Below, piece by piece: positions 2 through 63,286 of a DNA stretch of 64,000 bases; position 1 is the first letter of the stretch, and each line of letters starts with the position of its first letter. The translations under genes were made by a program, and so were the position numbers. The notes under the pieces were generated by a model. That model ran no database searches and was not told where the DNA came from. It saw only the letters and a program-made list of their open reading frames with translations. The DNA is from an uncultured Parcubacteria group bacterium (lineage in GTDB: Bacteria > Patescibacteriota > Minisyncoccia > UBA6257 > 2-01-FULL-56-20). The stretch is taken from NCBI GenBank assembly GCA_903944135.1, contig CAJAQL010000006.1, positions 9,425-73,424 of the forward strand, read 5' to 3'.

Positions 2-1801
2 GTTCTGAGCGCCATCGTCATTTTTGGTTTCGGGCGTGAGTTTCATATCGGTATGATCAGGAACCTGCGGCGTCTTCGGGCGGATATGGACACGCTCGTT
101 TCGATCGGGACAATTGCCGCGTTCGCATGGAGCGTTTACGGGCTTGCGGCCGGTCGCATGGATTCGTATTTCGAAACAGGTGCGGTCGTTACGGCGCTTA
201 TCCTGCTCGGACGATATTTCGAGGCGAAGAGCCGCGGAGCCGCGGGGGAGGCAGTGGAAAAACTTATGCAGCTTGGCGCTAAATCAGCGCAGGTTCTGCG
301 TGATGGCAAGGAAAGAGAAATTCCCATCGCCGATGTCGTTGTCGGCGATATTTTGCGTATTCGGCCCGGCGAAAAGATTCCCGTAGACGGCGAAGTGGTT
401 TCCGGTGGAACAAGCATCGATGAATCGATGTTGACCGGCGAAAGCATGCCGGTCGGCAAAGGTGTTCACGATGCAGTTTTCGGCGCGACGCTGAACGTGA
501 GCGGAAGTTTCGACATGAAAGCGACGAAGATCGGGAGCGAGACAATGCTCGCGCAGATCGTGCAGATGGTATCGGACGCGCAGACGCAAAAAGCGCCGAT
601 CGAGCGGCTTGCGGATAAAATCTCATCGGTGTTCGTGCCGATTGTTCTCACGCTTGCGGCAGCGACATTCGTGATCTGGTTTTTTGTGACGCACAATATT
701 GCAGAGAGCGTGACGTCAGCCGTTGCGGTGCTCGTGGTAGCATGTCCGTGCGCTTTGGGGCTTGCAACACCAACGGCCATTATGGTCGGCACTGGCGAAG
801 GCGCACGGCGTGGCGTGCTCATTAAAAACGGTTCATCTCTCGAAAAAGGGAAGAAAATTGATGTAGTGATTTTCGATAAGACCGGTACGCTCACTGAAGG
901 AAAACCGGAGGTCACGGATATCATTGTCGCCTCTGGCATTGCGGAGGAGCATCTCCTTGCGCTCGCCGCAGGCGTAGAAAGCTTTTCCGAGCATCCGCTT
1001 GCGCGCGCCGTTATGGACGAGGCGAAGAAAAAACATTTAGCACCGCTTGCCATCAGCGGTTTCTCGAATATTGCCGGAAAAGGGATCGAAGGAATTGCCG
1101 GTGGAAAGCGAGTTGCGGTTGGAAGTATTCATTTTATTCTGGAGCAGAATATCCCGTTGGGTTCATTGGAAAAAGACATTACCCGGCTCCAATCGGAAGC
1201 GAAAACGATCCTTGCGATCATCGAGGGTGAAGATCTTATCGGCGTGCTTGCGGTTGCCGATGCGGTCAAGAGCGATGCGGCGGCGGCGATAAAAGCGCTG
1301 AAACGTATCGGCATAAAGACCATGATGATCACGGGGGATAACGAAGCCACGGCGCAAGCGGTCGCACGGACGCTTGATATCGATGACGTTATCGCGCATG
1401 TTATGCCGCAGGATAAAGCCTTAGAAATAAAGAAGCTTCAGGCGCAGGGATCGAAGGTTGCGTTCGTGGGGGATGGTATCAATGACGCACCCGCACTCGT
1501 GCAGGCGGATCTCGGCATCGCGATGGGAACCGGCACCGATATCGCCATCGAAGCAGGGGACATCGTGCTTGTAAAGGGAAGTCCCATGAAAGTTGTCGAG
1601 GCGATCACGCTCTCGCAAAGGACGTTCAGAACCATCCGACAGAACCTTTTCTGGGCGTTCTTCTATAATGTCGCGGCGATCCCGCTCGCCGCATTGGGAT
1701 TTCTTAATCCGATGATCGCGGCAACGGCGATGGCGGCGTCGAGCGTCAGCGTCGTCGGGAACAGCCTGCGGATCAGACACAAAAAGATAGTGACGACCTA
1801 A
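2..1801 (+). CDS. copA: Heavy-metal (Cu+) translocating P-type ATPase, 5'-truncated by the window edge
   Basis: The open frame runs from base 2 with no stop, and the first Met at 53 is internal. P-type ATPase motifs are present: CPC ([10 protein letters not shown]), DKTGTLT phosphorylation site, GDGINDAP hinge and MITGDN. Confidence 0.9.
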
Positions 1802-4156: not shown

Positions 4157-4184
4157 AGAACATGATGTCTTTTAGATAGATAAG

Positions 4185-4215
4185 AAAACGGCCACGGAAA
4201 AAATCCGTGGCCGTT
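4185..4215. terminator. Bidirectional terminator between convergent genes
   Basis: Hairpin aaaacggccacgg-aaaaaat-ccgtggccgtt flanked by A and T runs. Confidence 0.6.
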
Positions 4216-4228
4216 GCCTCACGTGGTC

Positions 4229-10988: not shown

Positions 10989-11996
10989 ATGCTTATTGAT
11001 GATGTAACAGCAAGAATCGCGGCAGGCGATGGCGGCAAGGGCGCCGTGGCGTTCAATCGGAATATGATGGCGCTTGGACCGGTGGGCGGTTCCGGTGGGC
11101 GTGGCGGAAATGTTGTCGCTGTCGGTGTCTCCGATATGAGTGCGCTGAACCTGTTCCGCTTTAAAAAAGAGTTCAACGCAGAAAACGGCCGCGAAGGCCG
11201 GGGCCAGTTCCGTGACGGACATGATGGTGAAGATCTTATATTAAGACTTCCCGTGGGCACGGTAGCGCATAATCTCATAACCGGCGAGGACGCGAGCATT
11301 GAACACGTGGGTGAGCGGGTGATCCTCGCCAAGGGCGGGCTCGGCGGCCGGGGAAATTTCTACTTCCGTTCGGCGCACAACACGTCGCCTAAGAACTTCC
11401 AACCGGGACTTCCCGGTGAACAGTTCATGTTCCGCTTCGAATTGAAGCTCATTGCGGATGTTGGTTTTGTGGGGCTTCCGAACGCCGGGAAATCGAGCAT
11501 GCTGAACGAACTTACGAGTGCGCACAGCAAGGTTGCGAACTACCCCTTCACGACGCTCGAACCGAGTCTCGGTGTGTATTACGATCTTATCATTGCCGAC
11601 ATTCCGGGAATCATCGAGGGATCATCGGAAGGCAAGGGGCTTGGCGTTAAATTTTTGCGGCATATCGAGCGTACGCGCATCCTTTTCCATTTCATTGCGT
11701 CAGAATCGCAGGATCTCGAAAAAGATTATAAAACGATCCGCTACGAGCTCGGCGCACATAACCCTGAACTGCTCAAAAAGAAGGAATACTTGTTTCTTTC
11801 AAAGAGCGATCTCTTTGAAAAAAAAGAACTAAAGAAGAAAGTCGACATTTTGAAGAAGCTGAATCCGACTGCCTTTGCGGTATCGATCGCGGACGAAGCG
11901 AGCATGGAGAAGATCAAAAAGATATTGAACAAGATAGAGAAGGAAAAGACAACAAAGGCGGCGAAGGCGGTAAAAGCAAAAAAGACCGGGGTTTAA
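10989..11996 (+). CDS. obg: GTPase Obg/CgtA
   Basis: Gly-rich Obg fold (AGDGGKGAVAF, GGSGGRGGNV), G1 motif GLPNAGKSS, DIPG and a Lys-rich C-terminus. Confidence 0.9.
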   Translation: MLIDDVTARIAAGDGGKGAVAFNRNMMALGPVGGSGGRGGNVVAVGVSDMSALNLFRFKKEFNAENGREGRGQFRDGHDGEDLILRLPVGTVAHNLITGEDASIEHVGERVILAKGGLGGRGNFYFRSAHNTSPKNFQPGLPGEQFMFRFELKLIADVGFVGLPNAGKSSMLNELTSAHSKVANYPFTTLEPSLGVYYDLIIADIPGIIEGSSEGKGLGVKFLRHIERTRILFHFIASESQDLEKDYKTIRYELGAHNPELLKKKEYLFLSKSDLFEKKELKKKVDILKKLNPTAFAVSIADEASMEKIKKILNKIEKEKTTKAAKAVKAKKTGV

Positions 11997-50524: not shown

Positions 50525-50540
50525 GATATAAGTATAGCAT

Positions 50541-51101
50541 ATGATTATCATCGGCATCACGGGAACCTTGGGCGCCGGAAAAGGAACGGTCGTCGATTAT
50601 CTTACGACCAAAGGATTTGTTCACTATTCTGCGCGCGATTTCATCATCCGTGAGATCGAACGGCGCGGTCTTCCGGTAGATCGCGACAGCATGACCATGA
50701 TCGCAAACGATATGCGTTCGACCCACTCACCAAGCTACATCGCCGAGATGCTTTATAACGAAGCAAAAAGCGCGGGGCAGGATGCCGTCATTGAATCGCT
50801 CCGCACCGAGGGCGAGATCTTATCGCTTCGACAAAACGGAAATTTCCACCTCCTTGCCGTGGATGCCGATCCAAAGCTCCGTTATGAACGCATTACCCTG
50901 CGCGCAAGCGAAACCGACAAAATACCTTTCGAAAAATTCATCGCCGATGAAGCGCGCGAAATGCATGCAACCGATCCGAACAAGCAGAATCTTGCACGCT
51001 GCATCGAGCTTGCCGATGCACGCCTCGTAAACAACGGCACCGTGAATGACCTATACGTTCAGGTTGATAGTATCCTCAAGAGGATCGACATTGCCCAATA
51101 A
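50541..51101 (+). CDS. P-loop nucleotide/nucleoside kinase-like protein (CoaE/Adk-like fold; substrate unknown)
   Basis: Only the N-terminal P-loop IIIGITGTLGAGKGT was recognised. Confidence 0.5.
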   Translation: MIIIGITGTLGAGKGTVVDYLTTKGFVHYSARDFIIREIERRGLPVDRDSMTMIANDMRSTHSPSYIAEMLYNEAKSAGQDAVIESLRTEGEILSLRQNGNFHLLAVDADPKLRYERITLRASETDKIPFEKFIADEAREMHATDPNKQNLARCIELADARLVNNGTVNDLYVQVDSILKRIDIAQ

Positions 51102-51202
51102 AAACCTCATATTTTGCCGATTTTTCCCCTGTGGATAACTGCCCTTTTGACGAAGCGGCGGTATGCTTGTTATAGTTAAGTAGTCGAAAATAAATCGAAA
51201 GT

Positions 51203-51305
51203 GTGTCATTCCGAATTTCTCTGTCGTTCCCGCAAAAGCGGGAACCCAGAAAAAACTGGATCCCCGCATGCGCGGGGACGACAGAAACAAAGCTCGGAAT
51301 GACAA
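51203..51305. repeat. Cluster of GC-rich palindromic repeat units upstream of lexA
   Basis: gtcattccgaa…cgttcccgcaaaagcgggaac…ggatccccgcatgcgcggggacgacag…ctcggaatgaca. Confidence 0.7.
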
Positions 51306-51932
51306 ATGACACATAAATCTATGACCAACATAACAAAACGCCAGAAAGAAACGCTCGATTTCATCAAGGCCTATCAGGCGAAAAATGGGTATGCGCCTTC
51401 GCTTGAAGAGATCAAGACCTATCTCAAGCTCTCCTCGGTTTCCACGGCGCATCATCATGTGAAAGCGCTCGAGGAGCAAGGTTATCTTCAGAAAGACGAT
51501 AACCAGCCGCGCGGGATCAGCGTGAACACCGCGGAGCAGATGGTACAGATCCCGCTCAAGGGTCTCATTGCAGCTGGAACTCCGATCATGGCGCTCGAAC
51601 AGCAGGAGATCATCGCCGTGCCGCGTAACCGCCTGCCCCGGGAAGTGAAGAATATCTACGCCCTGAAGGTCGTCGGTCAAAGTATGATCGACGAGAACAT
51701 CAATGACGGCGACATCGTGCTCGTACGTCATCAGGCGACCGCAAATAACGGCGAGAAGGTGGTCGCGCTCATCGACAACAATGACGTGACGCTCAAAACG
51801 TTCTTCGCCGAAAACGGCCAGATCCGTCTCCAGCCCGCCAACAAGAAGATGCAGCCCATCATCGTCCGCAAAGGCAATACTGGTTTCGCGATCCAGGGCA
51901 TCGTCCTCGATGTGATCAAAAATTTCGCATAA
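51306..51932 (+). CDS. lexA: LexA repressor (S24 peptidase)
   Basis: N-terminal wHTH, Ala-Gly cleavage site (LIAAGTP), Ser in VVGQSM and Lys in VTLKTF. Confidence 0.85.
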   Translation: MTHKSMTNITKRQKETLDFIKAYQAKNGYAPSLEEIKTYLKLSSVSTAHHHVKALEEQGYLQKDDNQPRGISVNTAEQMVQIPLKGLIAAGTPIMALEQQEIIAVPRNRLPREVKNIYALKVVGQSMIDENINDGDIVLVRHQATANNGEKVVALIDNNDVTLKTFFAENGQIRLQPANKKMQPIIVRKGNTGFAIQGIVLDVIKNFA

Positions 51933-51966
51933 AACCGCTTTTAGTATTCCCTTTTTATAGTCATGA

Positions 51967-52000
51967 AAAAGGCGGACTTCCCTCGGAAAGTCCGCCTTGC
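51967..52000. terminator. Bidirectional terminator hairpin
   Basis: aaggcggactt-ccctcgga-aagtccgcctt. Confidence 0.6.
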
Positions 52001-52024
52001 TTATATGCTATCCACCGCAGAATC

Positions 52025-52219
52025 CTACATCGGATTCCAGCGCGGGCCGAAGAGAAACACAAGGACAAAGAGCAGGATCGCCATGACGAAGAAAATGATC
52101 TTCCTCGCCCGCTTCGAACGAACGATCTCGCGCAGCATCAGAAACAGGACGCCTGCGCCGCCGATCATGAGAATCGCTCCCATGAAACCAGCTCTAACGA
52201 ACAAACTCCACCAACCCAT
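52025..52219 (-). CDS. Possible 64-aa small membrane protein
   Basis: Two hydrophobic helices; no clear RBS. Confidence 0.3.
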   Translation of the reverse strand: MGWWSLFVRAGFMGAILMIGGAGVLFLMLREIVRSKRARKIIFFVMAILLFVLVFLFGPRWNPM

Positions 52220-52325
52220 AATCCCCTCCTCTCGGATCTTTTTGATCCGCTAAAAACCTATCTGCGAATTGAATTATGGCATGATATAAAATATTGTCAA
52301 ACGCCAGGCAGAGGCCTCTCGTAGA

Positions 52326-52362
52326 AAAAGAAACCCCGCCTCATGGAAGCGCGGGGTTTCCT
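52326..52362 (-). terminator. Strong rho-independent terminator (minus strand)
   Basis: Minus-strand reading ggaaaccccgcgcttccatgaggcggggtttc followed by ttttt. Confidence 0.7.
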
Positions 52363-52657
52363 GAACGCGGGGGTTTATGGCATTTGGCATTGCCGCTAGA
52401 ACCAACAAATTCGCTGGCCCCAGAAGGAATCATGAACGATGATCATGGTGGAATGACGACGGTGACGTCGACGGAACGAAGCTATGCAATACCAGCTTCG
52501 TGAGACGTACCGAAACCGCATCTGCTGTGGAGGCGGCAAACGCCGCTTGTGCTGACCATCACGGCCCCTCATCTCTTGTACCATAGGGCTGCTCCTTTCT
52601 CTGAAGAAAATTCAAACACATATCTGAATTTAAAGCAAGAACCGCGAAAGAAGGAAT

Positions 52658-53182
52658 TTACCGCGACGTATTGCTGCGATGTTTTTCAAGATTATCACGA
52701 TGCGTCTCTATGGCATCCAACTTACGTAAGAAGTCTTTTATAAGATCCGGCATGTCATAGAGCGAGATCTCGGGTCCTATCTTTGCATATCGCCCAATAA
52801 TCTCCAGAGCATTTCGCGTCGCTTCGGGCAGTATCGCCGAATTCTCCTCGAGTTCCCCGAATGTAACATGTTGAGGATCCCTGAAAAGTTCCGGCACGGG
52901 TTCGACCGTCAAACCGTCGATCAAAATCTTTCTTGCATCTTTTAATTTTTCGATCGCTTCCGAAAGTTCGCCATCGGGAATATCGGTTTTAAAAAGCGAT
53001 CCTTCAGGATAATTTACGGCGCCCACCTCATGGTCCGACGCTTTCGTATCGAATTCAAAATCGGTCTTTTCGCCTTGTGCGAGCTCCTGCCGCGCCGCGC
53101 CCGCAACCGCAGGATCGATCGGTTTCCCTTCATTTGCCGCCAAGTATTCCAAAAATTCCTTCCCTGGATTTTCTGTTTTCAT
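52658..53182 (-). CDS. Hypothetical acidic protein
   Basis: 174-aa ORF with no motif recognised. Confidence 0.5.
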   Translation of the reverse strand: MKTENPGKEFLEYLAANEGKPIDPAVAGAARQELAQGEKTDFEFDTKASDHEVGAVNYPEGSLFKTDIPDGELSEAIEKLKDARKILIDGLTVEPVPELFRDPQHVTFGELEENSAILPEATRNALEIIGRYAKIGPEISLYDMPDLIKDFLRKLDAIETHRDNLEKHRSNTSR

Positions 53183-53239
53183 ACTTACATCATATCAAAA
53201 TAACCGCACAAACAACACTTACATGAAGCCATCAATTGA

Positions 53240-53842
53240 TTATATGGATTTCAATATCCTCAGAATGGCCTTCTGATATTCCGGATACCTGATATCATGG
53301 GGTGCGTCCTTCACCACAACCAGCTTCGAACGTTTCGCCAAGCTTGCCGTCTCTTCGCACCGTATTCTGAGCGAAGGGAATTTTTTCCCTTCGAATCCTC
53401 CATAAAATACAACCGAGGGGATCTGCAGATTTTGAGCCGCTTCCCTGCCGCTGCGTTGCTTGATTTCAGCCAGTCTCCTCTTGCCGACGAACCGGTCGAT
53501 CCAAGATTTCATTTCGGGAGACTTCATCATCGGAAGATCCTCCTTGAAATCGGGACTCAGCGAACAAAGATAGACTTTTTTAGGATGAAGATCGTTCGCC
53601 GACAAGAGGGCGATCACCGCACCATAAGAAAAACCAAGCAGATAATTTTCTTCCGATCTGTTTTTCTTGTAAAAACCCTTGAACTCGGCGACATAATCGT
53701 TCATCGTCCGATAATTCCATGTGATAGGCGCGATCGATACCCTAAAACCTTTTTGCTCCAAAAATCTTCGAAGCCAAAAAAACGAACGGCTCGTAGATGA
53801 CATCTTGAAACCGGGGACGATAAAGAAAGTTTTACGAGTCAT
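53240..53842 (-). CDS. Putative alpha/beta-hydrolase fold protein
   Basis: GFSYGA fits the GxSxG nucleophile elbow; otherwise unassigned. Confidence 0.45.
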   Translation of the reverse strand: MTRKTFFIVPGFKMSSTSRSFFWLRRFLEQKGFRVSIAPITWNYRTMNDYVAEFKGFYKKNRSEENYLLGFSYGAVIALLSANDLHPKKVYLCSLSPDFKEDLPMMKSPEMKSWIDRFVGKRRLAEIKQRSGREAAQNLQIPSVVFYGGFEGKKFPSLRIRCEETASLAKRSKLVVVKDAPHDIRYPEYQKAILRILKSI

Positions 53843-54161
53843 GGATTCCGAAGTATACCTATATGAACATTGAAAATCTCAAGTGGAGATGGTTGAGGAA
53901 AGTTGGAACCAGCTGGAAAGCTTCATTTTGAAATGGGGTGAGGTGATAAAAGATCGAGAAATGACGAGAATTAGCTAGAAATCCTCCTCCGCTAATACAC
54001 ATGATTAAGATTGAACCTAGTAAGAAGGAATGCAGGATAAGGCGGCCTCATAAAAAGAAATCTATCGCCAAAGCCTCACTATTAGAGAAATTAAGGGGTT
54101 GATCGCTTTAAGCTCTTAGAGATCAGCTAGTAATTCCGTACGTCCCCCTGAATCAAAAACA

Positions 54162-54635
54162 ATGTTTCAAAACACATACGAACAACGCAAGGGAGCTATC
54201 CGAGCCCGCATACATATCAACGATTACATGCGTCGCTATGCGTGGGAACTATTCAAGGGTAATCGACGACCCGTGATGAGAACGCTCTCGGACGCAGACT
54301 ATTATAAAAAGCTTTTCAGCGACCCTCTACACTCACCCATACGCTCAATGCTCGGCATCCCTTCCGGTGAGCTTTATAAATACTGCCAAGAGCTTGATTA
54401 TATCTCCTCAAACCTCGGTAGGGGTTTTATCTTCTATTTCATCTGCACTTGGTGCACTCGGAGGGTGAAATGCCTCTATGTTGACGAGAGTCTTGAGGCA
54501 ATGCTCTGCCGAAAATGTATCAAGCTTCCTTATCGACAGTCATCACGACCCGAACGGTACGCTTCGCGTTATATTCGGAGGCATCCAGAGCTGGTAAAAC
54601 GCTTAATTGATTCTGGCGAAATTCCTATTTATTGA
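54162..54635 (+). CDS. Hypothetical basic protein with a zinc-ribbon-like Cys cluster (island cargo)
   Basis: CTWCTRRVKC…CRKC; low GC. Confidence 0.5.
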   Translation: MFQNTYEQRKGAIRARIHINDYMRRYAWELFKGNRRPVMRTLSDADYYKKLFSDPLHSPIRSMLGIPSGELYKYCQELDYISSNLGRGFIFYFICTWCTRRVKCLYVDESLEAMLCRKCIKLPYRQSSRPERYASRYIRRHPELVKRLIDSGEIPIY

Positions 54636-54711
54636 ATACCTGCGCTCGGGTAGATGCATTTCAAGGGAATTATATACTTTGTAATATCGAACCTGTATAA
54701 TAAAAATATAA

Positions 54712-55560
54712 ATGGAGAAAGTTGAAATTGAAATAGAGTACGATGGTAAAGACGTAGAAGACGGAACTATGTCCTTAGAGGATATGATTCCAGCTCTACA
54801 AGGGCTGTCCAGCGCATATGGGAAGATTGCGATACTTCAAAATCCTGAGGCGCGTCATAATTTGCGAGTTACGGGAGTTGGAAAAGGAACATTCCATATT
54901 CTTATAGAAGCATGGAATCTAGCCGTTCAGAATAAGGATGGAATAATGCTTGCGGCGGCGATGACGGGAATAGCAGAGCCTTCCTTTAAGGTTGTGAAAG
55001 CGATAATTGGCGTAGCTACGACGACAAAGCACGTACAAAATAAGCCTTATACGGAAAAGATAAACGGAGTACAGCAGAGTATTACGATAACCAACTGTGA
55101 AAATGTCACCCTAGAAGTACCGTTGGAAATCTATCAGATTTATAAAGACGGCATGATAAAACAAGACTTGAATAAAATTACTGGATCGCTCGCGGAAGGG
55201 AAAATTGATAGTACCACTCTTAAAGCGAAATCAGAAAAAGAAAGCATAGAGGAAAAAATAACCTTGTCGGAGAAAAAGTTTTTTGAGGTAGAGGAAATCG
55301 TTACTACGGTTACAAAGGAAATGTGGCTTACGGGAGTTTTGAACTCTCTCGCAAAATCTACTAACCGAGGCAGCTTTTATCTCAACGACGGAACACGAGT
55401 ATCTTATCATTTGGGAGGCGATAATCCAGAAAAATTGTATCAGTTCTTTATTTATAAAGGGATAGTGCGAGTGAAATGTACGGCTTCCTTGGACGAGAAT
55501 CTAAAGCCAATACAAATCGAGATTTTGGAGATAAATCAGGTTGAACAACCACTTTTGTAG
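54712..55560 (+). CDS. Hypothetical 282-aa protein (island cargo)
   Basis: Co-directional 76 nt downstream of the previous gene; no recognised motif. Confidence 0.5.
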   Translation: MEKVEIEIEYDGKDVEDGTMSLEDMIPALQGLSSAYGKIAILQNPEARHNLRVTGVGKGTFHILIEAWNLAVQNKDGIMLAAAMTGIAEPSFKVVKAIIGVATTTKHVQNKPYTEKINGVQQSITITNCENVTLEVPLEIYQIYKDGMIKQDLNKITGSLAEGKIDSTTLKAKSEKESIEEKITLSEKKFFEVEEIVTTVTKEMWLTGVLNSLAKSTNRGSFYLNDGTRVSYHLGGDNPEKLYQFFIYKGIVRVKCTASLDENLKPIQIEILEINQVEQPLL

Positions 55561-55593
55561 TTATCCGCATTTCGTATTCACTTGCATGATAAA

Positions 55594-56967
55594 TTAATTC
55601 GTTGATTGAGCGGCCAAGGTATAGGCTTGGATATATCCAATCCCCGCCGTGAGTCCAGATTCTCCGAGCGTCGGGATACCTAAAATACATGGCCCCTTGT
55701 TCAAGATAGCAACACCACCAGAATTGCCATGGTCGATTGCTGCGTTGGTTTTATAGATTGGGCCGGGAAGAATCCCGCTTATGATTCCTTGGGTTACGGT
55801 TTCTGAAATACCGAGAAGATTGCCGGAGCTAGGATAGCCAAATATGGTAACAGTGTCTCCAACATTTACATTAGAACATCCTGAATGTGGAAATTCTGGC
55901 AGATTGTTAATGGCGGGAATAGGACTCAATGTAACTGACGACGGAAGCGGCGTATCGAGAGCAAAAATAGCAGCGTCCTCGTATGTATTTGGGTTATAAT
56001 GAGAATCGATTAAAGCTAACTTATAGTCTCCATAGCCTTCGTTATAACCAAAGTTTGGAGGCTCAGGATATACGGCGTAACAAGCAGGCAATGGCCCACC
56101 TTGGCTTGCCAATTCTGCTTCTGCAAGAACGTGAAAATTCGTTTCAATATCTATATTAGTTGAAGCAATGTTCTTGGTATTCGAACGAAATGAAACACCC
56201 GATCCACTGACCACAACGCTTGAATTAGATGCGTAGCAATTTATTTCAACGATAGTTGGCTCGATTTGATTAATAAGAGATGGCGTAAGGCCCTCGCTTG
56301 CGTTCAGTGAAGTATTTTGAGGCTGCTGAACGGTTGGCGACGAGTTCTGTTGTGATTGCGGTGCGCTATTGTTGCTGGACGTTGTAAAACTTAATGAAGA
56401 TAAAAATGTGTTCTCTAACTGCTGATCTTCTTGTCCTTCCCAATAAAAATAATCAAGCATGTATAAATCATTTCCCTTCAATACATCCATTCCTGATTGA
56501 TATAGAATCGGCTGTGATTGATCAACCTGATTGGAGCTAATATATTTTATGGCCGGGTAGCCCTTAAAGGTTGTTAAACTCGAAGAAACAACTTTGGAAC
56601 CGCCGGAAGTCCCGGTGTATTGAAGCTCGGCTTCAAGATCGGCATCGGCGGACGCGGCTGAACCAGCGAATGCGGATGCAATGTGAGTCGCCTCAAGAGA
56701 GGGATTATTTATACCGTTACCAATACTCCCCCAAGAATAATTGTCATCAGATACGCTATTCCCCTTTGTAAGCTCTTGAGAGGCTGAGGAGTAAGTCGGC
56801 TGATCGGGGAAATAAACGGAGAAGCTGCCATGCTCCAAATTATAACCTTGACCTCCGTTAGCGCTACTGGAAGAATTTTCGGAGATAATAACAACGCCCC
56901 AAATAATAAATGCTACTATTCCTAGACCTATCCAAACTCCTTTGTACGATTCTTTTGCTTCCGGCAT
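55594..56967 (-). CDS. Membrane-anchored trypsin-like serine protease (S1/S1C-like)
   Basis: N-terminal TM, S/N/Q-rich linker, catalytic-triad context NFHVLAEAE (His), AIFALD (Asp), and TNAAIDHGNSGGVAIL (GNSGG Ser motif, as in HtrA TDAAINPGNSGGPL). Confidence 0.7.
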   Translation of the reverse strand: MPEAKESYKGVWIGLGIVAFIIWGVVIISENSSSSANGGQGYNLEHGSFSVYFPDQPTYSSASQELTKGNSVSDDNYSWGSIGNGINNPSLEATHIASAFAGSAASADADLEAELQYTGTSGGSKVVSSSLTTFKGYPAIKYISSNQVDQSQPILYQSGMDVLKGNDLYMLDYFYWEGQEDQQLENTFLSSLSFTTSSNNSAPQSQQNSSPTVQQPQNTSLNASEGLTPSLINQIEPTIVEINCYASNSSVVVSGSGVSFRSNTKNIASTNIDIETNFHVLAEAELASQGGPLPACYAVYPEPPNFGYNEGYGDYKLALIDSHYNPNTYEDAAIFALDTPLPSSVTLSPIPAINNLPEFPHSGCSNVNVGDTVTIFGYPSSGNLLGISETVTQGIISGILPGPIYKTNAAIDHGNSGGVAILNKGPCILGIPTLGESGLTAGIGYIQAYTLAAQSTN

Positions 56968-56981
56968 GGGTGATGTGTGGG

Positions 56982-57704
56982 CTATTCGCTTTGAATATCA
57001 TTCGCCTCTTTTTCTGCGGAAGCGACGCACTCATTCGCCTTCTCTTGCGCTTGGAGACCTTGTACTCCACCCGCTTCGCTTAGATTGGAAGAAGAAGAAC
57101 ATTCTTCATTTTGTGATTGTTCATATTCAATCTGGGATTCGATGCTCGCACCAACAGAGCGGGCTTGATCAATCTTCTGTTGCGCCTCTGCATTTTGCAA
57201 AGTGATTTGAGCAGCTTGCAATAAGGGATTGTAAAGCGCACTCAATAGATTTTGCTCTCCCGTATATTCACTCATACCAGTTCCCGCCCCAACTGTTGCT
57301 CGGAGTTGAGCATAGCGCGTTTGCAGACTATATAGATTTTGTGTTGAGTTATTTATCGCCTCACTGTCAAAGCTGAGATAGCTCTCGTTTGCGAATTGCG
57401 TTTGCTGATCCAAAATAGTAGGCGTTGGACATCCTGCCGGAACTAATGATAATTGGCTCGCGTTGATAATTTCTGAGGGGCAGTTGGAGGGCGTAGAAAC
57501 GATTGTGTTTGGTTGGGATGTGGATTGAGACGTTGAGCTCGATGAATTAACTGAGGGTGAAGTATTTGATTGTAGCGCTTGAGTAGCCATACTGATCGCT
57601 TGGGTGGCAAGGGTCTGTGCCTGCGCACTATTGGCCGTACTGGGGTTTGAAAGCAGCGTCAAAACAAGTTGGAGAAGAACAACTATTGAAGATAAATTTG
57701 CCAT
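56982..57704 (-). CDS. Secreted low-complexity S/T/Q/N-rich protein
   Basis: Signal peptide MANLSSIVVLLQLVLTLLSNPSTANSA, then an S/T/Q-rich region and a Q-rich coiled C-terminus. The start is at the Met at 57704. Confidence 0.55.
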   Translation of the reverse strand: MANLSSIVVLLQLVLTLLSNPSTANSAQAQTLATQAISMATQALQSNTSPSVNSSSSTSQSTSQPNTIVSTPSNCPSEIINASQLSLVPAGCPTPTILDQQTQFANESYLSFDSEAINNSTQNLYSLQTRYAQLRATVGAGTGMSEYTGEQNLLSALYNPLLQAAQITLQNAEAQQKIDQARSVGASIESQIEYEQSQNEECSSSSNLSEAGGVQGLQAQEKANECVASAEKEANDIQSE

Positions 57705-57949
57705 GATATTTTTATTAAAATTTTTATTCCATGGCGTGGAGATCGGCCTCAATAACACAAAACTCCACGCTGTGCCTGAGCCTTGCGGCTCCATAGCCCT
57801 TTCGAGCCATGACCCTAGACGAGTGGCCAAACGTGGAGTTTGGTATCGTCTAGGGTGTTTCGCGCCATGCCCTGATTGCTCAAAGATTTAGGCGACTTAT
57901 ATTAAGTTGTGCTTTCAATGTAACATCGTTCCGACGACTTGTTAAGTCG

Positions 57950-58789
57950 ATGGAAAAATGTCGAAAAATGTCGGATAATAAAGTAACTACGGTGGACTAT
58001 AAAAAAATCGGCCTGCGATATAGAGAACGTTTAGCAACGCTTCGCGCTACGCCAGATTTTGATGAATTTTTGATCGAAACGATAAGACTCGATATGGAGT
58101 TGGAGCAATCGAGGAGAACCGACGGGTATAATTTCGAACCAGCAATTAAAATTCATATCGAGAAAATGCGCCTCATTGAAGGCCTGATTAAAAAATTCCA
58201 TTTGCCGCCACCTTTCCGCAACATCCTTGAAAACCCTTTTTATCCAGAAGCTAATGGCCTATACTTTGCACCTTATCGAATCGATCCGCAGGTTATCCCC
58301 GTTGCCAAAGGTGAATTTGAGCATCCACGCATTTCTGGCGAACCCCTCGATTCGTTAACGGTCACGATTTACGGCAGGCTTTCTACGGAAGATTGGGCTT
58401 CTCTAAAAGAACGTATTGAACGTTTGCAGGACGTAGCTTTCGATACCGAGGCGATTCATCCATTCCGACGTAGTAAAAATATCGATGAGAAGGTTAGAAT
58501 TGTTAAAGAAATGGCTACTCGAAAACCAAGGAGAGTCCGTAAAGAAAATGTCGAGCATAATTATATCGACATTCTTGAGAAATCAATGGGAAAATTATCC
58601 ATCTCAAAAAAGCGAGAGTTTTCTAAACTACATCCTTGGAGCGTGCGAAAGGTTATCGAGAATGGCAGGAGCAGTGCAGATGTGGCCTCACAACTCGGTC
58701 GGCGTAGCAAATCAAAAGATAAGGGCGCTGCTGTCCGAAAGACGCTTTCGCGCTTCAAGAATGCAAAAAAGCGGACAAAAGCACCATAG
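57950..58789 (+). CDS. Hypothetical 279-aa protein with a basic C-terminus (island cargo)
   Basis: No motif recognised; Lys/Arg-rich tail. Confidence 0.5.
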   Translation: MEKCRKMSDNKVTTVDYKKIGLRYRERLATLRATPDFDEFLIETIRLDMELEQSRRTDGYNFEPAIKIHIEKMRLIEGLIKKFHLPPPFRNILENPFYPEANGLYFAPYRIDPQVIPVAKGEFEHPRISGEPLDSLTVTIYGRLSTEDWASLKERIERLQDVAFDTEAIHPFRRSKNIDEKVRIVKEMATRKPRRVRKENVEHNYIDILEKSMGKLSISKKREFSKLHPWSVRKVIENGRSSADVASQLGRRSKSKDKGAAVRKTLSRFKNAKKRTKAP

Positions 58790-58934
58790 CGTTTATTTTT
58801 AAATAAACGTCACAATAGAAATTAATGTCGGGTTTATGATGGCCGTAATGAAATGATTACGGTCATTTTCATTGCACGGTGGCAAAGAAATCGTCATTAG
58901 CCCTCCACCGTGCTAGTGACGATTTCTTTATCTC

Positions 58935-59093
58935 ATGATCGGCACCGAACCCACTATGCTTTCTCTTGGACAATTAAGAGCTATTGATACAGAAAACGAA
59001 CTCTCGGATGAGGAGCTTCTTGAGCTACGCGACGCACTCGACCCTATTCTCGAAAGAATCCTTAATCGCTATTTCAATAGCATATTAGAATAG
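58935..59093 (+). CDS. Candidate 52-aa acidic helical micro-protein
   Basis: MIGTEPTMLSLGQLRAIDTENELSDEELLELRDALDPILERILNRYFNSILE; below the ORF-track cutoff. Confidence 0.3.
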   Translation: MIGTEPTMLSLGQLRAIDTENELSDEELLELRDALDPILERILNRYFNSILE

Positions 59094-59133
59094 GCCTCTT
59101 GCTATGGTATAACTAAGCGGTTAGAATAAAGAC

Positions 59134-59286
59134 ATGGACAAAGAGACGATCAGTAAGGTTATGCGGGAAATGGGGCGGCGCGGAGGGCTTGCGTCCGTAA
59201 ATGCTCGTAAGAAAAGCGGGAAGATGAAGGAGTGGTCTCAAAACGCTATAAAAGCTCGCCGCCGAAAAAAGAATAAAAAAGCATGA
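59134..59286 (+). CDS. Candidate 50-aa basic micro-protein translationally coupled to the recombinase
   Basis: MDKETISKVMREMGRRGGLASVNARKKSGKMKEWSQNAIKARRRKKNKKA. Its TGA stop overlaps the recombinase ATG (ATGA at 59283-59286). Confidence 0.4.
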   Translation: MDKETISKVMREMGRRGGLASVNARKKSGKMKEWSQNAIKARRRKKNKKA

Positions 59287-60863
59287 GCGAACTCAACGCC
59301 ATAATTTACTGCCGCGTCTCGTCGGAACGACAAAAGAACGAGGGTCACGGTCTCGACGGCCAAGAGCAACGTTGCCGTCTCTATTGCGGGCAAAAGCAAT
59401 ACAAAGTTGAGCGGGTCTTTAAGGACAGCTTCACAGGAGGCGGAGATTTTATGGAACGTCCGGCGATGGGAGACCTACTCGCCTACCTCGACAAGCATCC
59501 GCATCGGGATAATTACGTCGTCGTTTTTGATGACCTCAAGCGATTTGCCCGCGACACCGTTTTCCATTTGAAGCTCCGCCGCGAATTTAAGGCGCGGGGC
59601 GTTAAAGTGGAATGCCTTAATTACAAATTCGATGAATCCGAGGAAGGCGAGTTCATCGAAACCGTTTTAGCCGCACAGGGCGAGCTTGAGCGGAAGCAGA
59701 ATCGCCGCCAAGTAATTCAGAAGCAGAAAGCGCGTCTTGAGGCGGGCTATTGGCCTTTTTGCCCGCCGCCAGGCTATCGTCAGCCCAAAACAATGGCCCA
59801 TGGGAAGCTACTTACACCACACGAGCCAGAAGCGACGATGATAAGAATGGCCCTCGAAGGATTTGCGACAGATCGCTTCGAGACACAGGCGGATATGGCT
59901 CACTATTTGGGAGAACAAAATTTCGTCGGCAAAAGCAGAGTTCCCTTCCAGTTGGCGAATCGCTTATTGGCACGAGTTTGGATATATGCCGGATTTATCC
60001 AATATGAACCATGGGAAGTAATGAGGCGAGAAGGTCATCATCAGCCCCTCATTGACTTAGCGACCTATCACAAGATTTTGCGAAAACTCGAAGGTCGTAG
60101 CCCCATAAGGACAAGGGCGGATATGCGTGAGGATTTTCCTTTGCGCCACACCCGTATCGTCTGTAGTAACGGCCATCCTCTTACAGCCTCGTACACGACC
60201 AAAAAGAAGGGCTATAGGAAGCCTTATTATCGTTGTTCTAATAGGACTTGCCCCGAACATACCAAAAGCATCCCTGCTGAGCTTATATTGGCGCAATTCA
60301 AGGCTATGTTGCAGGAAATTCGCCCAAAGCCCCTTATTCTTAAAATCAGCGAAGCGATGCTCTATGAAAAATGGGAACGGCGCGTGGCCGAACGAGCCAA
60401 TAACGAAAAAAGGGAGGTTGGTGAAATTATAGGGATTCAAACGGAGATACGCGACCTCTCAAAGCTTGCACGAAAGGCAAGTAGTGAGCGCGTCCGGCGA
60501 GAGTATGAAAAGCAGATTGAGGAGCTTGCGGCGAAAGAGGAAAAATTAACAGAGAAAAACGATCCGGTGAAGAAGCCGAAAATCGAGTTTAGAACCGCTC
60601 TACAAATGGTGTTTGATTATCTAAAAGACCCATATACCAAGTGGGTTGAGGGCGATTTGAGCGAAAAAAATCTAGTGCTAAACCTCGTTTTTGAGGGTCT
60701 CGTTTTCTATGACCGAGGATTTGGATTTAGAACCGCTCCTTTGTGCCTTCCCTTAAGGGTTTTTGAGCATTTTACTACCTCTAAATTACAGGGTGTGGAG
60801 ACGGGCGGAATCGAACCGCCGTCTAGTAATGAAGCCAATGAGCCGTCTACGGGTGTAGTTTAA
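59283..60863 (+). CDS. Large serine recombinase (resolvase catalytic domain, recombinase domain, zinc ribbon)
   Basis: IYCRVSSERQ places the catalytic Ser in the resolvase N-domain. Long recombinase domain, Cys-containing zinc-ribbon segment (CSNGH…CSNRTCPEH) and coiled coil; 526 aa. Confidence 0.85.
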   Translation: MSELNAIIYCRVSSERQKNEGHGLDGQEQRCRLYCGQKQYKVERVFKDSFTGGGDFMERPAMGDLLAYLDKHPHRDNYVVVFDDLKRFARDTVFHLKLRREFKARGVKVECLNYKFDESEEGEFIETVLAAQGELERKQNRRQVIQKQKARLEAGYWPFCPPPGYRQPKTMAHGKLLTPHEPEATMIRMALEGFATDRFETQADMAHYLGEQNFVGKSRVPFQLANRLLARVWIYAGFIQYEPWEVMRREGHHQPLIDLATYHKILRKLEGRSPIRTRADMREDFPLRHTRIVCSNGHPLTASYTTKKKGYRKPYYRCSNRTCPEHTKSIPAELILAQFKAMLQEIRPKPLILKISEAMLYEKWERRVAERANNEKREVGEIIGIQTEIRDLSKLARKASSERVRREYEKQIEELAAKEEKLTEKNDPVKKPKIEFRTALQMVFDYLKDPYTKWVEGDLSEKNLVLNLVFEGLVFYDRGFGFRTAPLCLPLRVFEHFTTSKLQGVETGGIEPPSSNEANEPSTGVV

Positions 60864-61122
60864 CGAAAGTTAGACAGGTTTTGATCCGTAAGTGTCGCGC
60901 CAACCACAGGATCGTCGAATGGCGTTAAGTTCCCTTATATAAGACCGGCGATGGACCCAAGGAACCCGGATCCGCCGATCCCGACGTCGGTCAGCCGATT
61001 AGGCAAACGCGAACGCCGGAAGCTGCAACTTTTGTGTTGGCAGTTTAAATGATGCGACAAGTACGTCGTCGCCCACGACCCGCAAGCTCATGGAACATCA
61101 CTATCGAAGCCAGTGCGTCCCC
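60796..61122 (-). ncRNA. ssrA: tmRNA (ssrA)
   Basis: Minus-strand 5' GGGGACGCACUGGCUUCGAUAG… matches the tmRNA 5' consensus. Acceptor stem with G3·U70, T-arm GGCGG-UUCGAUU-CCGCC and 3' end CGUCUCCA (identical to B. subtilis ssrA). The tag reading frame is …CAG CUU CCG GCG UUC GCG UUU GCC UAA, giving …QLPAFAFA-stop; CCA is not encoded. Confidence 0.8.
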
Positions 61123-61213
61123 AAATTGCGCTTTCGCGCCGAATATAGAATAACATAAAAATACAAGAAAAGCAATATTCCTGTTGTTCCGTTGCAAAAC
61201 AGAATCTAAAAAG

Positions 61214-61285
61214 CCTGGATCCCCGCTTTCGCGGGGATGACAGAGGGAAAATAATAAAGCAAAAATTATTTTCCCTCTGTCACTT
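61214..61285. repeat. GC-rich palindromic repeat unit plus inverted repeat
   Basis: ggatccccgctttcgcggggatgacagagggaaaataa…ttattttccctctgtcac. Confidence 0.7.
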
Positions 61286-61826
61286 TCTCCACATCCGCGC
61301 GCTTCAAAAGCTCGGTCTGCAAGGATTCGGCAAGTTCGCGATCGATGGCCGGGAAGATGCCTTCCGAGGTATCCTCTTCACCTTCTTTTGCTTCTTCATG
61401 GCCGGCTGTAAGGATCGCGAGGCGCGCTACGCCCCAGATGCGATCCGAAATACCCTGTTCAATGTCCACATCCTGGATCTGCCGATACGGTATGGAGATC
61501 TCTTCTTTACTGAGGATCCCCCGCCGGATCTTCAATGCGTCGTCACTGAGCATGAATACATAGTTCACATAGGTAAGATAGGTGATGAAAAACGTAAGAA
61601 CAAACGTAAGAACAAATAAAGCCCATACTCCGAAAACGATAAAAATGCTCCATGGGGCGAAGGGTGTTTTCGCAAAAATCCCGCTCCCCTGCGCGATGGC
61701 GAGAAAAACAGCTCCGATGAAGATAATAATGCTCGGCGCGATCTGTTGGGAGATAAAAAGCAGGAACGTCTTATGTCCAAGTTTCTGATAAACGGAAGAA
61801 GGCGCGACGGCCAGCGTTGTTTCCAT
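61266..61826 (-). CDS. Membrane protein with a bacterial PH (bPH_2/YdbS-like) domain
   Basis: Two TM helices flanking LSDDALKIRRGILSKEEISIPYRQIQDVDIEQG… matches the bPH_2 pattern. Confidence 0.6.
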   Translation of the reverse strand: METTLAVAPSSVYQKLGHKTFLLFISQQIAPSIIIFIGAVFLAIAQGSGIFAKTPFAPWSIFIVFGVWALFVLTFVLTFFITYLTYVNYVFMLSDDALKIRRGILSKEEISIPYRQIQDVDIEQGISDRIWGVARLAILTAGHEEAKEGEEDTSEGIFPAIDRELAESLQTELLKRADVEKVTEGK

Positions 61827-61850
61827 GGATTCAGTATAACATAAAAGATA

Positions 61851-61965
61851 TCCCCTCTGTCATTCTGAGCAATAACGAAGAATCCTGCATTCGTCCGAAA
61901 AAATGATCTCTCGCGATATTCCCATCTTCGCTGAAACTACGATGGGCAGGCGGAATGACAGACCT
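61851..61965. repeat. GC-rich palindromic repeat units
   Basis: ctctgtcattctgagcaataacgaagaatc…ggcggaatgacagacc. Confidence 0.65.
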
Positions 61966-62557
61966 ATATTCTTCATGCTATAATGGCCTCATGCCCCCCA
62001 TGAACAACAATCGATTTCAGCGTCGGCCGATGCCGATCTTACCGCCGCGGCCGCTCATGAACCATCAGATCACCGCACTGGAACTTCGCGTGGTCGGTGA
62101 GAACGGCGAAAATCTCGGCGTCATTAGCCGCGATCAGGCGATCGCTTTAACAAGGCCCGAAGAAGGTATTGATCTTATCCTGATCGCTCCCGCGGCGAAA
62201 CCGCCGGTTGCGCGCATCATGAGCTATGACAAGTTCCGGTACGAAGAAGCGAAGCGCGAGAAGAAAGAAAAGGCAGCCCAGAAGAGCGCCGAAATGAAGC
62301 ATGTGCAGATCACGGTTCGTGCCGCACAGAACGATCTCATGGTGAAAGTCCGCCAGGCGGAAAAGTTTTTTGCCGAAGGGCATCCGATCGAAGTGGTGCT
62401 CCGGCTCCGCGGCCGCGAAAAACGGAACAAGGACTTAGCGATGGAGAAGCTGAAAGAATTCCTGAAAATGCTTCCCACAGAACACCGCGAGCTCCATCCC
62501 CCGCGCTTCGGACAGAACGGCCCGAGCGTCCAGATCGCCAAGATCATAAAAAGCTAA
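61955..62557 (+). CDS. infC: Translation initiation factor IF-3
   Basis: ALELRVVGENGENLGVISRDQAIALTRPEEGIDLILI… and a C-domain (VQITVRAAQNDLMVKVRQAEKFF…). The true start is uncertain, since infC often uses a non-ATG start. Confidence 0.8.
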   Translation: MTDLYSSCYNGLMPPMNNNRFQRRPMPILPPRPLMNHQITALELRVVGENGENLGVISRDQAIALTRPEEGIDLILIAPAAKPPVARIMSYDKFRYEEAKREKKEKAAQKSAEMKHVQITVRAAQNDLMVKVRQAEKFFAEGHPIEVVLRLRGREKRNKDLAMEKLKEFLKMLPTEHRELHPPRFGQNGPSVQIAKIIKS

Positions 62558-62583
62558 GACGGATTCCAGAACCAGAAAAAGAA

Positions 62584-62618
62584 ACCCGGGTCCCTGCTTC
62601 CGCGGGACGACAATAAAC
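62584..62618. repeat. GC-rich palindromic repeat unit
   Basis: cccgggtccctgcttccgcgggacgacaataaa. Confidence 0.6.
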
Positions 62619-62682
62619 CCATTGCAAAAAAAGCGGCTATCCTGTATACTCAACTTCGTTATTTAAACCATCATTTCTTATC

Positions 62683-62856
62683 ATGTCTTTTTCGAAAGCT
62701 TTGGCGAAACGCGTGAAGATCACGAAGAACGGTAAAGTCGTCCGCCGCCCCATGGCCGTGGACCATTTCCGCACGCGCAAGAACGCACGAAAGATCCAGA
62801 GCAAGCGCAAAACGCTTTCGCTCGACTATCCGATGAAAAAGATAATCAACTACTAA
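62683..62856 (+). CDS. rpmI: 50S ribosomal protein L35
   Basis: 57-aa basic protein MSFSKALAKRVKITKNGKVVRRPMAVDHF… in the canonical infC-rpmI-rplT order; below the ORF-track cutoff. Confidence 0.75.
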   Translation: MSFSKALAKRVKITKNGKVVRRPMAVDHFRTRKNARKIQSKRKTLSLDYPMKKIINY

Positions 62857-62857
62857 C

Positions 62858-63202
62858 ATGCCGAGAGTAAAACGAGGAGTCAATGCTTTAAAGCATCGCA
62901 ATAAAACATTAAAGTACGCGAAGGGTTTTTCTTGGGGCCGCAGTACGAAAGAACGAGCCGCCAAGGAAGCTCTGCTTCATGCATGGAGCCACGCCTTCCG
63001 CGGACGCAAGGAGAAAAAGCGGACTGCCCGCCGCGTCTGGAGCGTAAAGATCAATGCCGCAGCAAGAGAAGAAAGCATCTCTTACAGCAAATTGATCGCC
63101 GCACTTAAGAAGAAAAAAGTAACGCTCGACCGAAAGATCCTCGCAGATCTCGCCGAGAACGAACCGAAAGTGTTCAAAAAAGTTCTCGAAGCCGTAAAAT
63201 AA
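62858..63202 (+). CDS. rplT: 50S ribosomal protein L20
   Basis: MPRVKRGVNALKHRNKTLKYAKGF…. Confidence 0.9.
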   Translation: MPRVKRGVNALKHRNKTLKYAKGFSWGRSTKERAAKEALLHAWSHAFRGRKEKKRTARRVWSVKINAAAREESISYSKLIAALKKKKVTLDRKILADLAENEPKVFKKVLEAVK

Positions 63203-63216
63203 GAATCTATCAGATT

Positions 63217-63246
63217 AAAAAATCCGCAGAAATGCGGATTTTTTAA
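63217..63246. terminator. Bidirectional terminator after rplT
   Basis: aaaaaatccgcagaaatgcggatttttt. Confidence 0.7.
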
Positions 63247-63286
63247 TGTCGCCTGACTGCGCTAAAAAAATAAGCTTTTGTCGAAA

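Follow-up and report, generated by a model that had tools for sequence, protein, structure and literature searches.

Islands and prophages of the tyrosine-integrase type (Islander/TIGER classes) lie at the 3' end of ssrA, the gene of transfer-messenger RNA (tmRNA), with the integrase gene adjacent to an intact tmRNA and a duplicated attachment (att) segment of tens of nucleotides; SopEΦ is cited as an ssrA-integrated example (PMC7192596). Serine integrases had been regarded as avoiding such tRNA-type targets. The stretch analysed here, 64,000 nucleotides of the Parcubacteria contig CAJAQL010000006.1 (hereafter the window), contains a one-piece tmRNA gene whose tag reading frame is shifted by one nucleotide and, at the 3' end of this gene, a putative 6.9-kb integrative element encoding a large serine recombinase. 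Target, targeted end and position of the integrase gene are those of the tyrosine-integrase islands at ssrA, and the tandem remnants found at one related locus (L005) also resemble them. The differences reside in the class of the recombinase, in an att identity of 5-7 nt at the extreme 3' tip, and in the absence of a displaced tmRNA fragment.

Large serine integrases adjoining t(m)RNA genes were also predicted with TIGER by Mageeney et al. (2020), in 14 of 297 cases; the use of a t(m)RNA gene by a serine integrase (S-Int) had "not been reported previously" and was considered to need proof (PMC7192596). Compared with those cases, the present one belongs to a coherent family with junctions mapped to the base, an attP form and a circular relative. 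Genes with an att site inside the integrase reading frame are described as a peculiarity of archaeal SSV-type tyrosine integrases, found nowhere else (PMC8371274). In these "suicidal" integrases attP likewise lies within the open reading frame (ORF), the target is of the tRNA type and integration partitions the gene. Their split separates major parts of the enzyme, whereas here only a terminal helix would be exchanged and the integrated copy keeps all recognised domains; a serine recombinase from a bacterial host of the candidate phyla radiation (CPR) is thus not a member of that family. A looser analogue is the integration-dependent immunity of mycobacteriophage BPs, in which attP is located in a coding region and integration changes the C-terminus of the protein (PMC4557955). 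There, the altered gene is a repressor and the integrase is tyrosine-type, whereas here the integrase itself would be altered. Small serine recombinases of the φRSM type target the 3' end of a tRNA gene. They are devoid of the recombinase, zinc-ribbon and coiled-coil domains present here. The φRSM-type enzymes are among those cited in PMC7192596.

As read from its sequence, the locus very probably combines a functional tmRNA bearing a frameshifted tag with a serine-integrase element that uses the 3' tip of this tmRNA gene as attB and harbors attP in its own integrase gene. The tmRNA finding alone is routine, one more CPR example; the frameshifted tag and a tmRNA-targeting serine integrase spanning its own attP are new variants.

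The tmRNA gene and its tag reading frame

A minus-strand ssrA gene had been proposed by an earlier reading of the sequence alone (the original prediction). Its parts are the following.

60796..61122, minus strand: one-piece tmRNA (ssrA), 327 nt to the discriminator A (ARAGORN, Rfam, minimum free energy fold, covariation)
61116..61122, minus strand: acceptor-stem 5' strand GGGGACG, including G3 of G3·U70 (minimum free energy fold, Rfam alignment)
61039..61041, minus strand: resume codon GCC, gene positions 82-84, directly preceded by UUUAAACU (ARAGORN coding part 82..132; same context in L035, L053 and L061)
61020..61021, minus strand: TT in place of a single T in all relatives, a 1-nt insertion that shifts the tag ORF
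60999..61001, minus strand: ancestral tag stop UAA, at the end of …PAFAFA, now out of frame
60991..60993, minus strand: UGA ending the frame-0 tag ANTKVAASGVRVCLIG
60797..60820, minus strand: T-arm GGCGG UUCGAUU CCGCC and acceptor 3' strand CGUCUCC (fold, Rfam, covariation)

Read from 61122, the minus strand starts with GGGGACGCACUGGCUUCGAUAG and ends with GGCGGUUCGAUUCCGCCCGUCUCCA at 60796, exactly as proposed; CCA is not encoded, CAC continuing after the gene end. That this 3' end is identical to B. subtilis ssrA, as stated in the original prediction, is plausible. ARAGORN calls a tmRNA at 60795..61122(-), and the Rfam covariance search matches RF00023 with 106.2 bits (gathering score 47, E 1.7e-40), covering the full model from 1 to 374. 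In the minimum free energy (MFE) fold (z = -5.4 versus shuffles), the acceptor stem is closed, and the T-arm is present along with the long helix 2. The 7-bp acceptor stem GGGGACG/CGUCUCC with G3·U70, the determinant of alanyl-tRNA synthetase (AlaRS), is followed by the discriminator A, and the T-arm GGCGG-UUCGAUU-CCGCC stands next to the acceptor 3' strand as the tmRNA family requires; both features, already noticed in the original prediction, are present in the MFE fold and in the Rfam alignment. In an alignment of 20 clade members, compensatory changes occur in 40 of the 77 predicted pairs, covariation is seen at acceptor pairs 4-6, and 19 of these 20 relatives retain G3·U70. The hairpin of PK1 and hairpins downstream of it are aligned by the RF00023 covariance model, several of them covarying. 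A covariance-model match and a tRNA-like domain formed by the 5' and 3' ends, the absence of which had been named as fatal to the tmRNA reading, were both looked for and both found.

Segment 60796..61122(-) is the tmRNA gene of a Parcubacteria (CPR) bacterium, an ordinary RF00023 member apart from its tag. With standard one-piece tmRNAs it shares the G3·U70 tRNA-like domain, the T-arm, the long helix 2, a short tag ORF and a resume GCC preceded by an A/U-rich leader, and it differs from them by its short length (327 nt) and by a tag frameshifted in this genome alone. Its product, which has a tRNA-like domain of the alanine type, a resume codon and a short tag frame, would by family membership be the ribosome-rescue RNA of trans-translation. 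Among genome loci, the closest come from metagenome-assembled genomes, one labelled Candidatus Parcubacteria and two with contigs or chromosomes of about 0.9 Mb. To note, the tmRNA genes of three relatives (L008, L009, L016) are missed by ARAGORN and found by Infernal at 60-127 bits, and the tag of L005 is mis-called by ARAGORN (GGIGRSGF…), the canonical frame giving ANSNRVPAFAFA-stop.

From the resume GCC at gene position 82, the tmRNA ORF runs over 16 codons to a UGA: the tag called by ARAGORN is ANTKVAASGVRVCLIG-UGA, as compared to ANTKVAAPAFAFA-UAA for the clade. The original prediction had read a tag ending in …PAFAFA from the codons GCG UUC GCG UUU GCC UAA. This string is indeed present at 61016..60999, but it lies in frame +1 relative to the resume GCC at 61041..61039; what was recognised is the tag ancestral to the clade, which 52 of 52 relatives carry in frame and which the extra T puts out of frame here. 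These relatives comprise 4 genome loci (L004-L007) and 48 metagenomic ones, retrieved with a clade-specific DNA pattern; in all of them the resume codon and UAA are separated by a number of nucleotides divisible by three (36, 39, 42 or 45 nt where measured), versus 40 nt in the window. Their tag consensus is AN(S/T/N)(K/N)VAAP(R)AFAFA-stop, or …AYA-stop. The closest ones, L035, L053 and L061 (94% identical), have the same UUUAAACU context before GCC and encode the clade tag; about 15 substitutions separate the window from them but one indel only, the extra T at 61020/61021. A single extra T thus makes the tag ANTKVAASGVRVCLIG-UGA rather than ANTKVAAPAFAFA: it turns the C-terminal PAFAFA into SGVRVCLIG, the stop being now a UGA 8 nt further downstream, so that in this genome alone the tag ends in …VCLIG. 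The hydrophobic …AFAFA/…AYA degron, typical of the clade though not family-defining, is absent from the frame-0 tag of the window. Across the clade, tag codon positions have entropies of 0.32/0.41/0.78, third positions being about twice as variable as first and second ones, and variation in the last six codons is almost purely synonymous, which argues that the …PAFAFA frame is under protein-level selection.

It is concluded from these comparisons that the frameshift is a recent acquisition of this lineage, in which SGVRVCLIG has taken the place of the degron. Ribosome rescue would persist despite the altered tag, while tag-directed proteolysis is probably impaired, the AFA degradation signal being probably lost. 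Such a natural tmRNA, deprived of the selected degradation tag while the RNA is conserved, would offer a natural test of whether rescue, and not proteolysis, is the function kept under selection.

Alternatively, the tag might still be translated as …PAFAFA, either by resumption 1 nt downstream (first codon CCA, giving PTQKLQLPAFAFA) or by a +1 frameshift at GCU-U-CCG. The PAFAFA-UAA codons are intact and identical to those of L053, and Rfam aligns CUAAUC with the consensus stop-codon loop. However, L035, L053 and L061 use GCC in frame 0 within the very same resume context, the N-terminal ANTKVAA fits the clade consensus in frame 0, and no slippery motif is evident at the insertion; since the resume context is unchanged, restoration of PAFAFA is without support and is judged unlikely. 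The extra T could also be an assembly or sequencing artefact, the real gene encoding ANTKVAAPAFAFA, as it is a single-base difference and the assemblies may derive from overlapping read sets. Yet the locus is found on contigs from three accessions (ERZ1426854, ERZ27229603 and SRR8496341), the two that were compared match the window at 100% identity along 12.3 kb (L001) and 3.2 kb (L002), extra-T site included, and TT versus T is no long homopolymer. An artefact is therefore considered very unlikely.

Two other variations of the tag region were observed. The resume codon is GAC (Asp) in L024, L036 and L069 and GGC (Gly) in L043 and L067, with the …AFA/…AYA ending kept. In the sub-lineage of the window, which includes L053, L035 and L061, 10-13 nt are inserted right after the ancestral UAA (60975-60998, minus strand); this insertion forms a small hairpin, UCGG-CUGA-CCGA, the loop of which supplies the UGA now serving as stop.

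The serine-recombinase element at the 3' end of ssrA

The original prediction had placed the tmRNA gene in an ORF-free gap of 400 bp. The part 60864..61265 is free of ORFs, but the last 69 nt of the gene are inside a plus-strand ORF, 59283..60863. That the tmRNA 3' end is overlapped by a large-serine-recombinase element, of which it would also be the integration site, had escaped the earlier reading. The element and its limits are as follows.

53883..60801, no strand assigned: putative integrative element, 6.9 kb, at the ssrA 3' end (collinearity with L053, GC profile, cargo)
59283..60863, plus strand: large serine recombinase, predicted integrated (attL) form, 526 aa (Pfam, PHROG, overlap with the tmRNA gene)
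60795..60801, plus strand: predicted attL core GTGGAGA, antisense of the tmRNA terminus UCUCCAC (L053 homology ends here)
53883..53889, plus strand: predicted attR core GTGGAGA, direct repeat of the attL core (L053 collinearity breaks at 53887)
53883..53978, plus strand: predicted detached native 3' end of the recombinase gene, VE-MVEESWNQLESFILKWGEVIKDREMTRIS-stop (in frame with 59283..60794 once circularised)

The ORF matches Pfam Resolvase PF00239 (1.4e-24) and phrog_95 "integrase" (6.6e-59). Zn_ribbon_recom scores 24.4 bits, just below its cutoff of 25.3, and the homologues carry PF07508 and PF13408. In the catalytic motif YCRVSSERQ and beyond, residues R11, S13, Q17, D84, D85, R88 and R91 are invariant among 86 homologues. 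One member of the family, P0011, matches the TP901-1 and SPβ integrases in sequence, and its AlphaFold (AF2) model (predicted local distance difference test, pLDDT, 88.6) possesses the recombinase domain, the zinc ribbon and the coiled coil, and matches the SPβ, Bxb1, φC31 and LI integrases (E 1e-16 to 1e-9). By sequence and model, the protein is a large serine recombinase (serine integrase), predicted to catalyse attP x attB recombination. Its last 20 codons and stop, the 69 nt mentioned above, run antisense through the acceptor strand and T-arm of the tmRNA (…QGVE-TGGIEPPSSNEANEPSTGVV-stop).

The limits of the island come from comparison with L053. On the left, L053 1-3370 corresponds to window 50526-53887, and on the right L053 4242-6778 corresponds to window 60794-63283; between these collinear flanks there are 871 nt in L053 versus 6,906 nt in the window, and both breakpoints fall in GTGGAGA (53883-53889 and 60795-60801). 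Five nucleotides, GTGGA (U70-C74), are common to all junctions. The GC content is 0.42-0.47 across the insert, as compared to about 0.50 for most of the window, and the cargo is mosaic, shared only in part with relatives. That GTGGAGA at 53883 is the mere start of a small conserved ORF was considered and rejected, the L053 comparison identifying a junction and a detached integrase tail. In L053 itself, the place of the island is taken by the 871-nt segment (3365-4248), with a single PAS-domain ORF (Pfam PAS_8, 1.2e-11); this segment could be a remnant, or else a mini-cassette that occupies the same att site. An independent Logan contig, L002, stops at window position 60781, 14 nt past the tmRNA end and inside the island, not exactly at the core; this break could reflect population heterogeneity at the junction.

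In 15 of 18 loci that encode relatives in species-representative genomes, the recombinase gene directly adjoins, at its 3' end, either a t(m)RNA gene or a partial tRNA. It is a tmRNA gene in L004-L009, L013 and L016, a tRNA-Leu, -Arg or -Phe gene in L011, L012, L014 and L018-L021, and a partial tRNA-Phe in L010. The family extends across CPR, Melainabacteria, Saccharibacteria and Proteobacteria. Among five species the recombinase is 75-90% identical, versus 69-75% for IF3, L20 and NUDIX, and this higher conservation argues for horizontal spread. Among viral contigs, neither relatives of the recombinase nor a match to the attP junction pattern were found.

At L010, the relative abuts only the 3' 47 nt of a tRNA-Phe (11496-11545, anticodon loop to CCA), beyond which the DNA is unrelated. 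This locus was considered as an attP or as a crossover at the anticodon loop and was set aside as evidence, a second element in the same tRNA explaining it equally well; the partial tRNA-Phe is probably due to such a second insertion. A displaced tmRNA 3' fragment at the far end of the island is absent from the window and was seen at one of 17 loci only, L005, as a 16-nt segment identical to the tmRNA 3' end (3164-3179). In this locus two detached integrase tails stand about 1 kb apart 3' of ssrA (4152 and 5125), the 16-nt copy lying a further 1 kb from them; such an array points to several integrations in succession, the older elements having since decayed.

Could the recombinase instead be a vertically inherited neighbour, e.g. 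a domesticated invertase, whose overlap with ssrA is an incidental run-on of the ORF? The recurrence of the arrangement in five species with the same right-hand synteny would be in line with this. However, the recombinase is present at only one (L068) of 21 clade tmRNA loci whose downstream sequence extends for 1.6 kb or more, it exceeds ribosomal protein L20 in conservation, the left-hand cargo is mosaic, its distant homologues abut tRNA-Leu, tRNA-Arg, tRNA-Phe or tmRNA genes in other phyla, and conserved in-frame tails at the islands' far ends as well as a circular relative exist (see below). This explanation is already contradicted by the evidence and is regarded as extremely improbable.

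attP and the C-terminus of the integrase

When the two island ends are joined through the core, the recombinase ORF continues in frame (…SKLQGVE-MVEESWNQLESFILKWGEVIKDREMTRIS-stop) into a conserved helix of 29 residues, to reach 535 aa. The same in-frame reconstruction is obtained in L005 (at two sites), L006 and L007, the tail being conserved as protein. The predicted attP reads …CAGGGT GTGGAGA TGGTTGAGG… and the predicted attB …ATCTCAA GTGGAGA CGGGCGG…, the predicted junction sequences being CTAAATTACAGGGTGTGGAGATGGTTGAGGAAAG for attP and GAAAATCTCAAGTGGAGACGGGCGGAATCG for attB. Body and tail are contiguous in at least 15 of the best 120 database homologues, P0011 and P0018 among them, with a tail consensus V(E/D)(M/I)V..SWNQLE.(F/W)(I/V)F(E/D). 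Most of the other homologues among these 120 end in antisense T-arm peptides such as VEMGGIEPP, VDPTGLEPAT or VEMAGIEPAS, and the switch between body and tail always follows V-E/D, that is GTG-GAN. Furthermore L070, the contig of P0011, overlaps itself by 30 nt at its ends, which marks it as a circle of about 8.48 kb. It is without t(m)RNA, and CAGGGT-GTGGA-CGT is found inside its recombinase ORF, the product of which is 62% identical to that of the window; the circular attP form is thus seen in this relative, and in each arm the reconstructed attPs can be aligned with native ones. The crossover codons map, in the P0011 model, to a disordered linker (residues 505-516, pLDDT <50), after which the exchanged tail forms a separate helix of 24 residues, predicted at 516-539.

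The in-frame ORFs across reconstructed junctions, the contiguous body/tail proteins and the circular L070 together show, at the level of sequence, a predicted attP within the integrase gene, integration being expected to swap the integrase C-terminus. According to this scheme, the 3' tip of the tmRNA gene, UCCAC (U70-C74), would be the attB crossover for the element 53883..60801, and attP would sit in the 3' coding region of the integrase gene, in the codons of the disordered linker. Integration would detach the conserved C-terminal helix, leaving its code at the far end of the island, and, as reconstruction and comparison show, the lost helix is replaced by the 20 codons running antisense through the tmRNA acceptor and T-arm. 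The element may still be mobile in this genome, and the helix swap may have functional consequences. The family would provide base-resolved predictions of attP, attB, attL and attR, and its natural target would be the conserved T-arm/acceptor end, present in every bacterium.

Since attP and attB share GTGGA, integration leaves the sequence of the mature tmRNA intact and modifies only its 3' trailer. This bears on another explanation, by which the tmRNA would be a pseudogene in decay, having lost its function through the island or the frameshift. Its tag is frameshifted, its 3' trailer has been replaced by element DNA, and a terminator-like site is missing immediately downstream. Nevertheless, the RNA is 94% identical to that of L053 as compared to 88% for the flanks, all helices are intact, its covariance-model score (106 bits) is on par with the 98-124 bits of relatives, the mature RNA keeps the shared core, and in-frame tags are kept in four other island-bearing species. 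Decay of the gene is accordingly held to be highly improbable. A simple promoter and terminator scan around ssrA performs no better than shuffles. No terminator-like site is found directly downstream of ssrA (60563-60795), the nearest minus-strand match (60580-60563) being more than 200 nt off and within the recombinase ORF; transcription of the normally abundant tmRNA may therefore run antisense into the recombinase gene.

Several observations weigh against a functional tmRNA serving as attB of such an element. For the tmRNA, no SmpB-like ORF was found within the 64-kb window, and the assemblies that agree on the extra T may not be independent of one another. For the element, L053 is not strictly an empty site, since its PAS-gene segment is also bracketed by GTGGA, and neither an excised form nor an empty site of the window's own element was observed; a look-up of LexA by exact match, aimed at an empty site, returned only the source contig. 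The att core identity amounts to only 5-7 nt, a scan of attP and attB for dyad symmetry around the core gave no consistent centre, and the half of attB on the host side shows no conservation from one genome to another, an unusual trait among serine integrases. Finally, a search with a tail profile gave nothing significant for far-end tail remnants in the distant tRNA-linked loci.

A more far-reaching proposal can be made tentatively, and is doubtful at this stage: the family would represent the first bacterial and serine-family clade with attP in its own gene, dedicated to t(m)RNA 3' ends, the helix exchange acting as a built-in switch. The 535-aa excised and the 526-aa integrated enzymes would then differ, e.g. 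as integration-competent versus excision-competent or unstable forms, and further control could come from transcription that reads through from the strongly expressed ssrA, in the antisense direction to int.

Cargo, LOOT RNA and dispersed repeats

Two further features precede the recombinase gene within the island.

58935..59286, plus strand: two small ORFs, 52 and 50 aa, the second overlapping the recombinase start; no Pfam/PHROG match
57778..57894, minus strand: LOOT RNA (RF03000), 73.4 bits (Rfam)

Pfam and PHROG annotation of the island cargo revealed no phage structural or replication genes, and the searches of cargo and small ORFs with these databases returned no informative function except for a trypsin-like protease. 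Small ORFs of about 50-90 aa are always located directly upstream of the recombinase, sometimes overlapping its start (810-959 in L070, 21-203 in L071, 4277-4558 in L072), and are candidate regulators or directionality factors.

LOOT RNA is present in every close member of the integrase-element family, the circular L070 included. Its positions in relatives are the following.

L004 9371-9491
L005 9045-9181
L006 8513-8628
L007 8992-9105
L008 2357-2477
L016 8620-8732
L070 510-627

Wherever the recombinase is nearby, LOOT lies 0.3-1.5 kb upstream of it on the opposite strand; the exception is L008, in which LOOT is about 7.5 kb from the recombinase and on the same strand. It is located at, or overlaps, the start of the first divergent cargo gene, for which the window has an in-frame ATG at 57794 or 57704, a placement that fits a cis-regulatory leader or an element-specific small RNA. 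A paper search turned up no functional description of LOOT RNA (RF03000), and this orphan Rfam family gains here a consistent genetic context.

Outside the island, the window contains a dispersed GC-rich palindrome, (C)TGTCGT-TCCCGC-NNNN-GCGGGA-ACCCAG and its complement, in 7 copies (13571, 26921, 34649, 35713, 51228, 51262 and 61221) versus 0.03 expected from shuffles. All the copies checked are intergenic, one of them standing between a bPH_2 gene and ssrA, and the palindrome is a repeat family of the REP (repetitive extragenic palindromic)-like or terminator-like kind.

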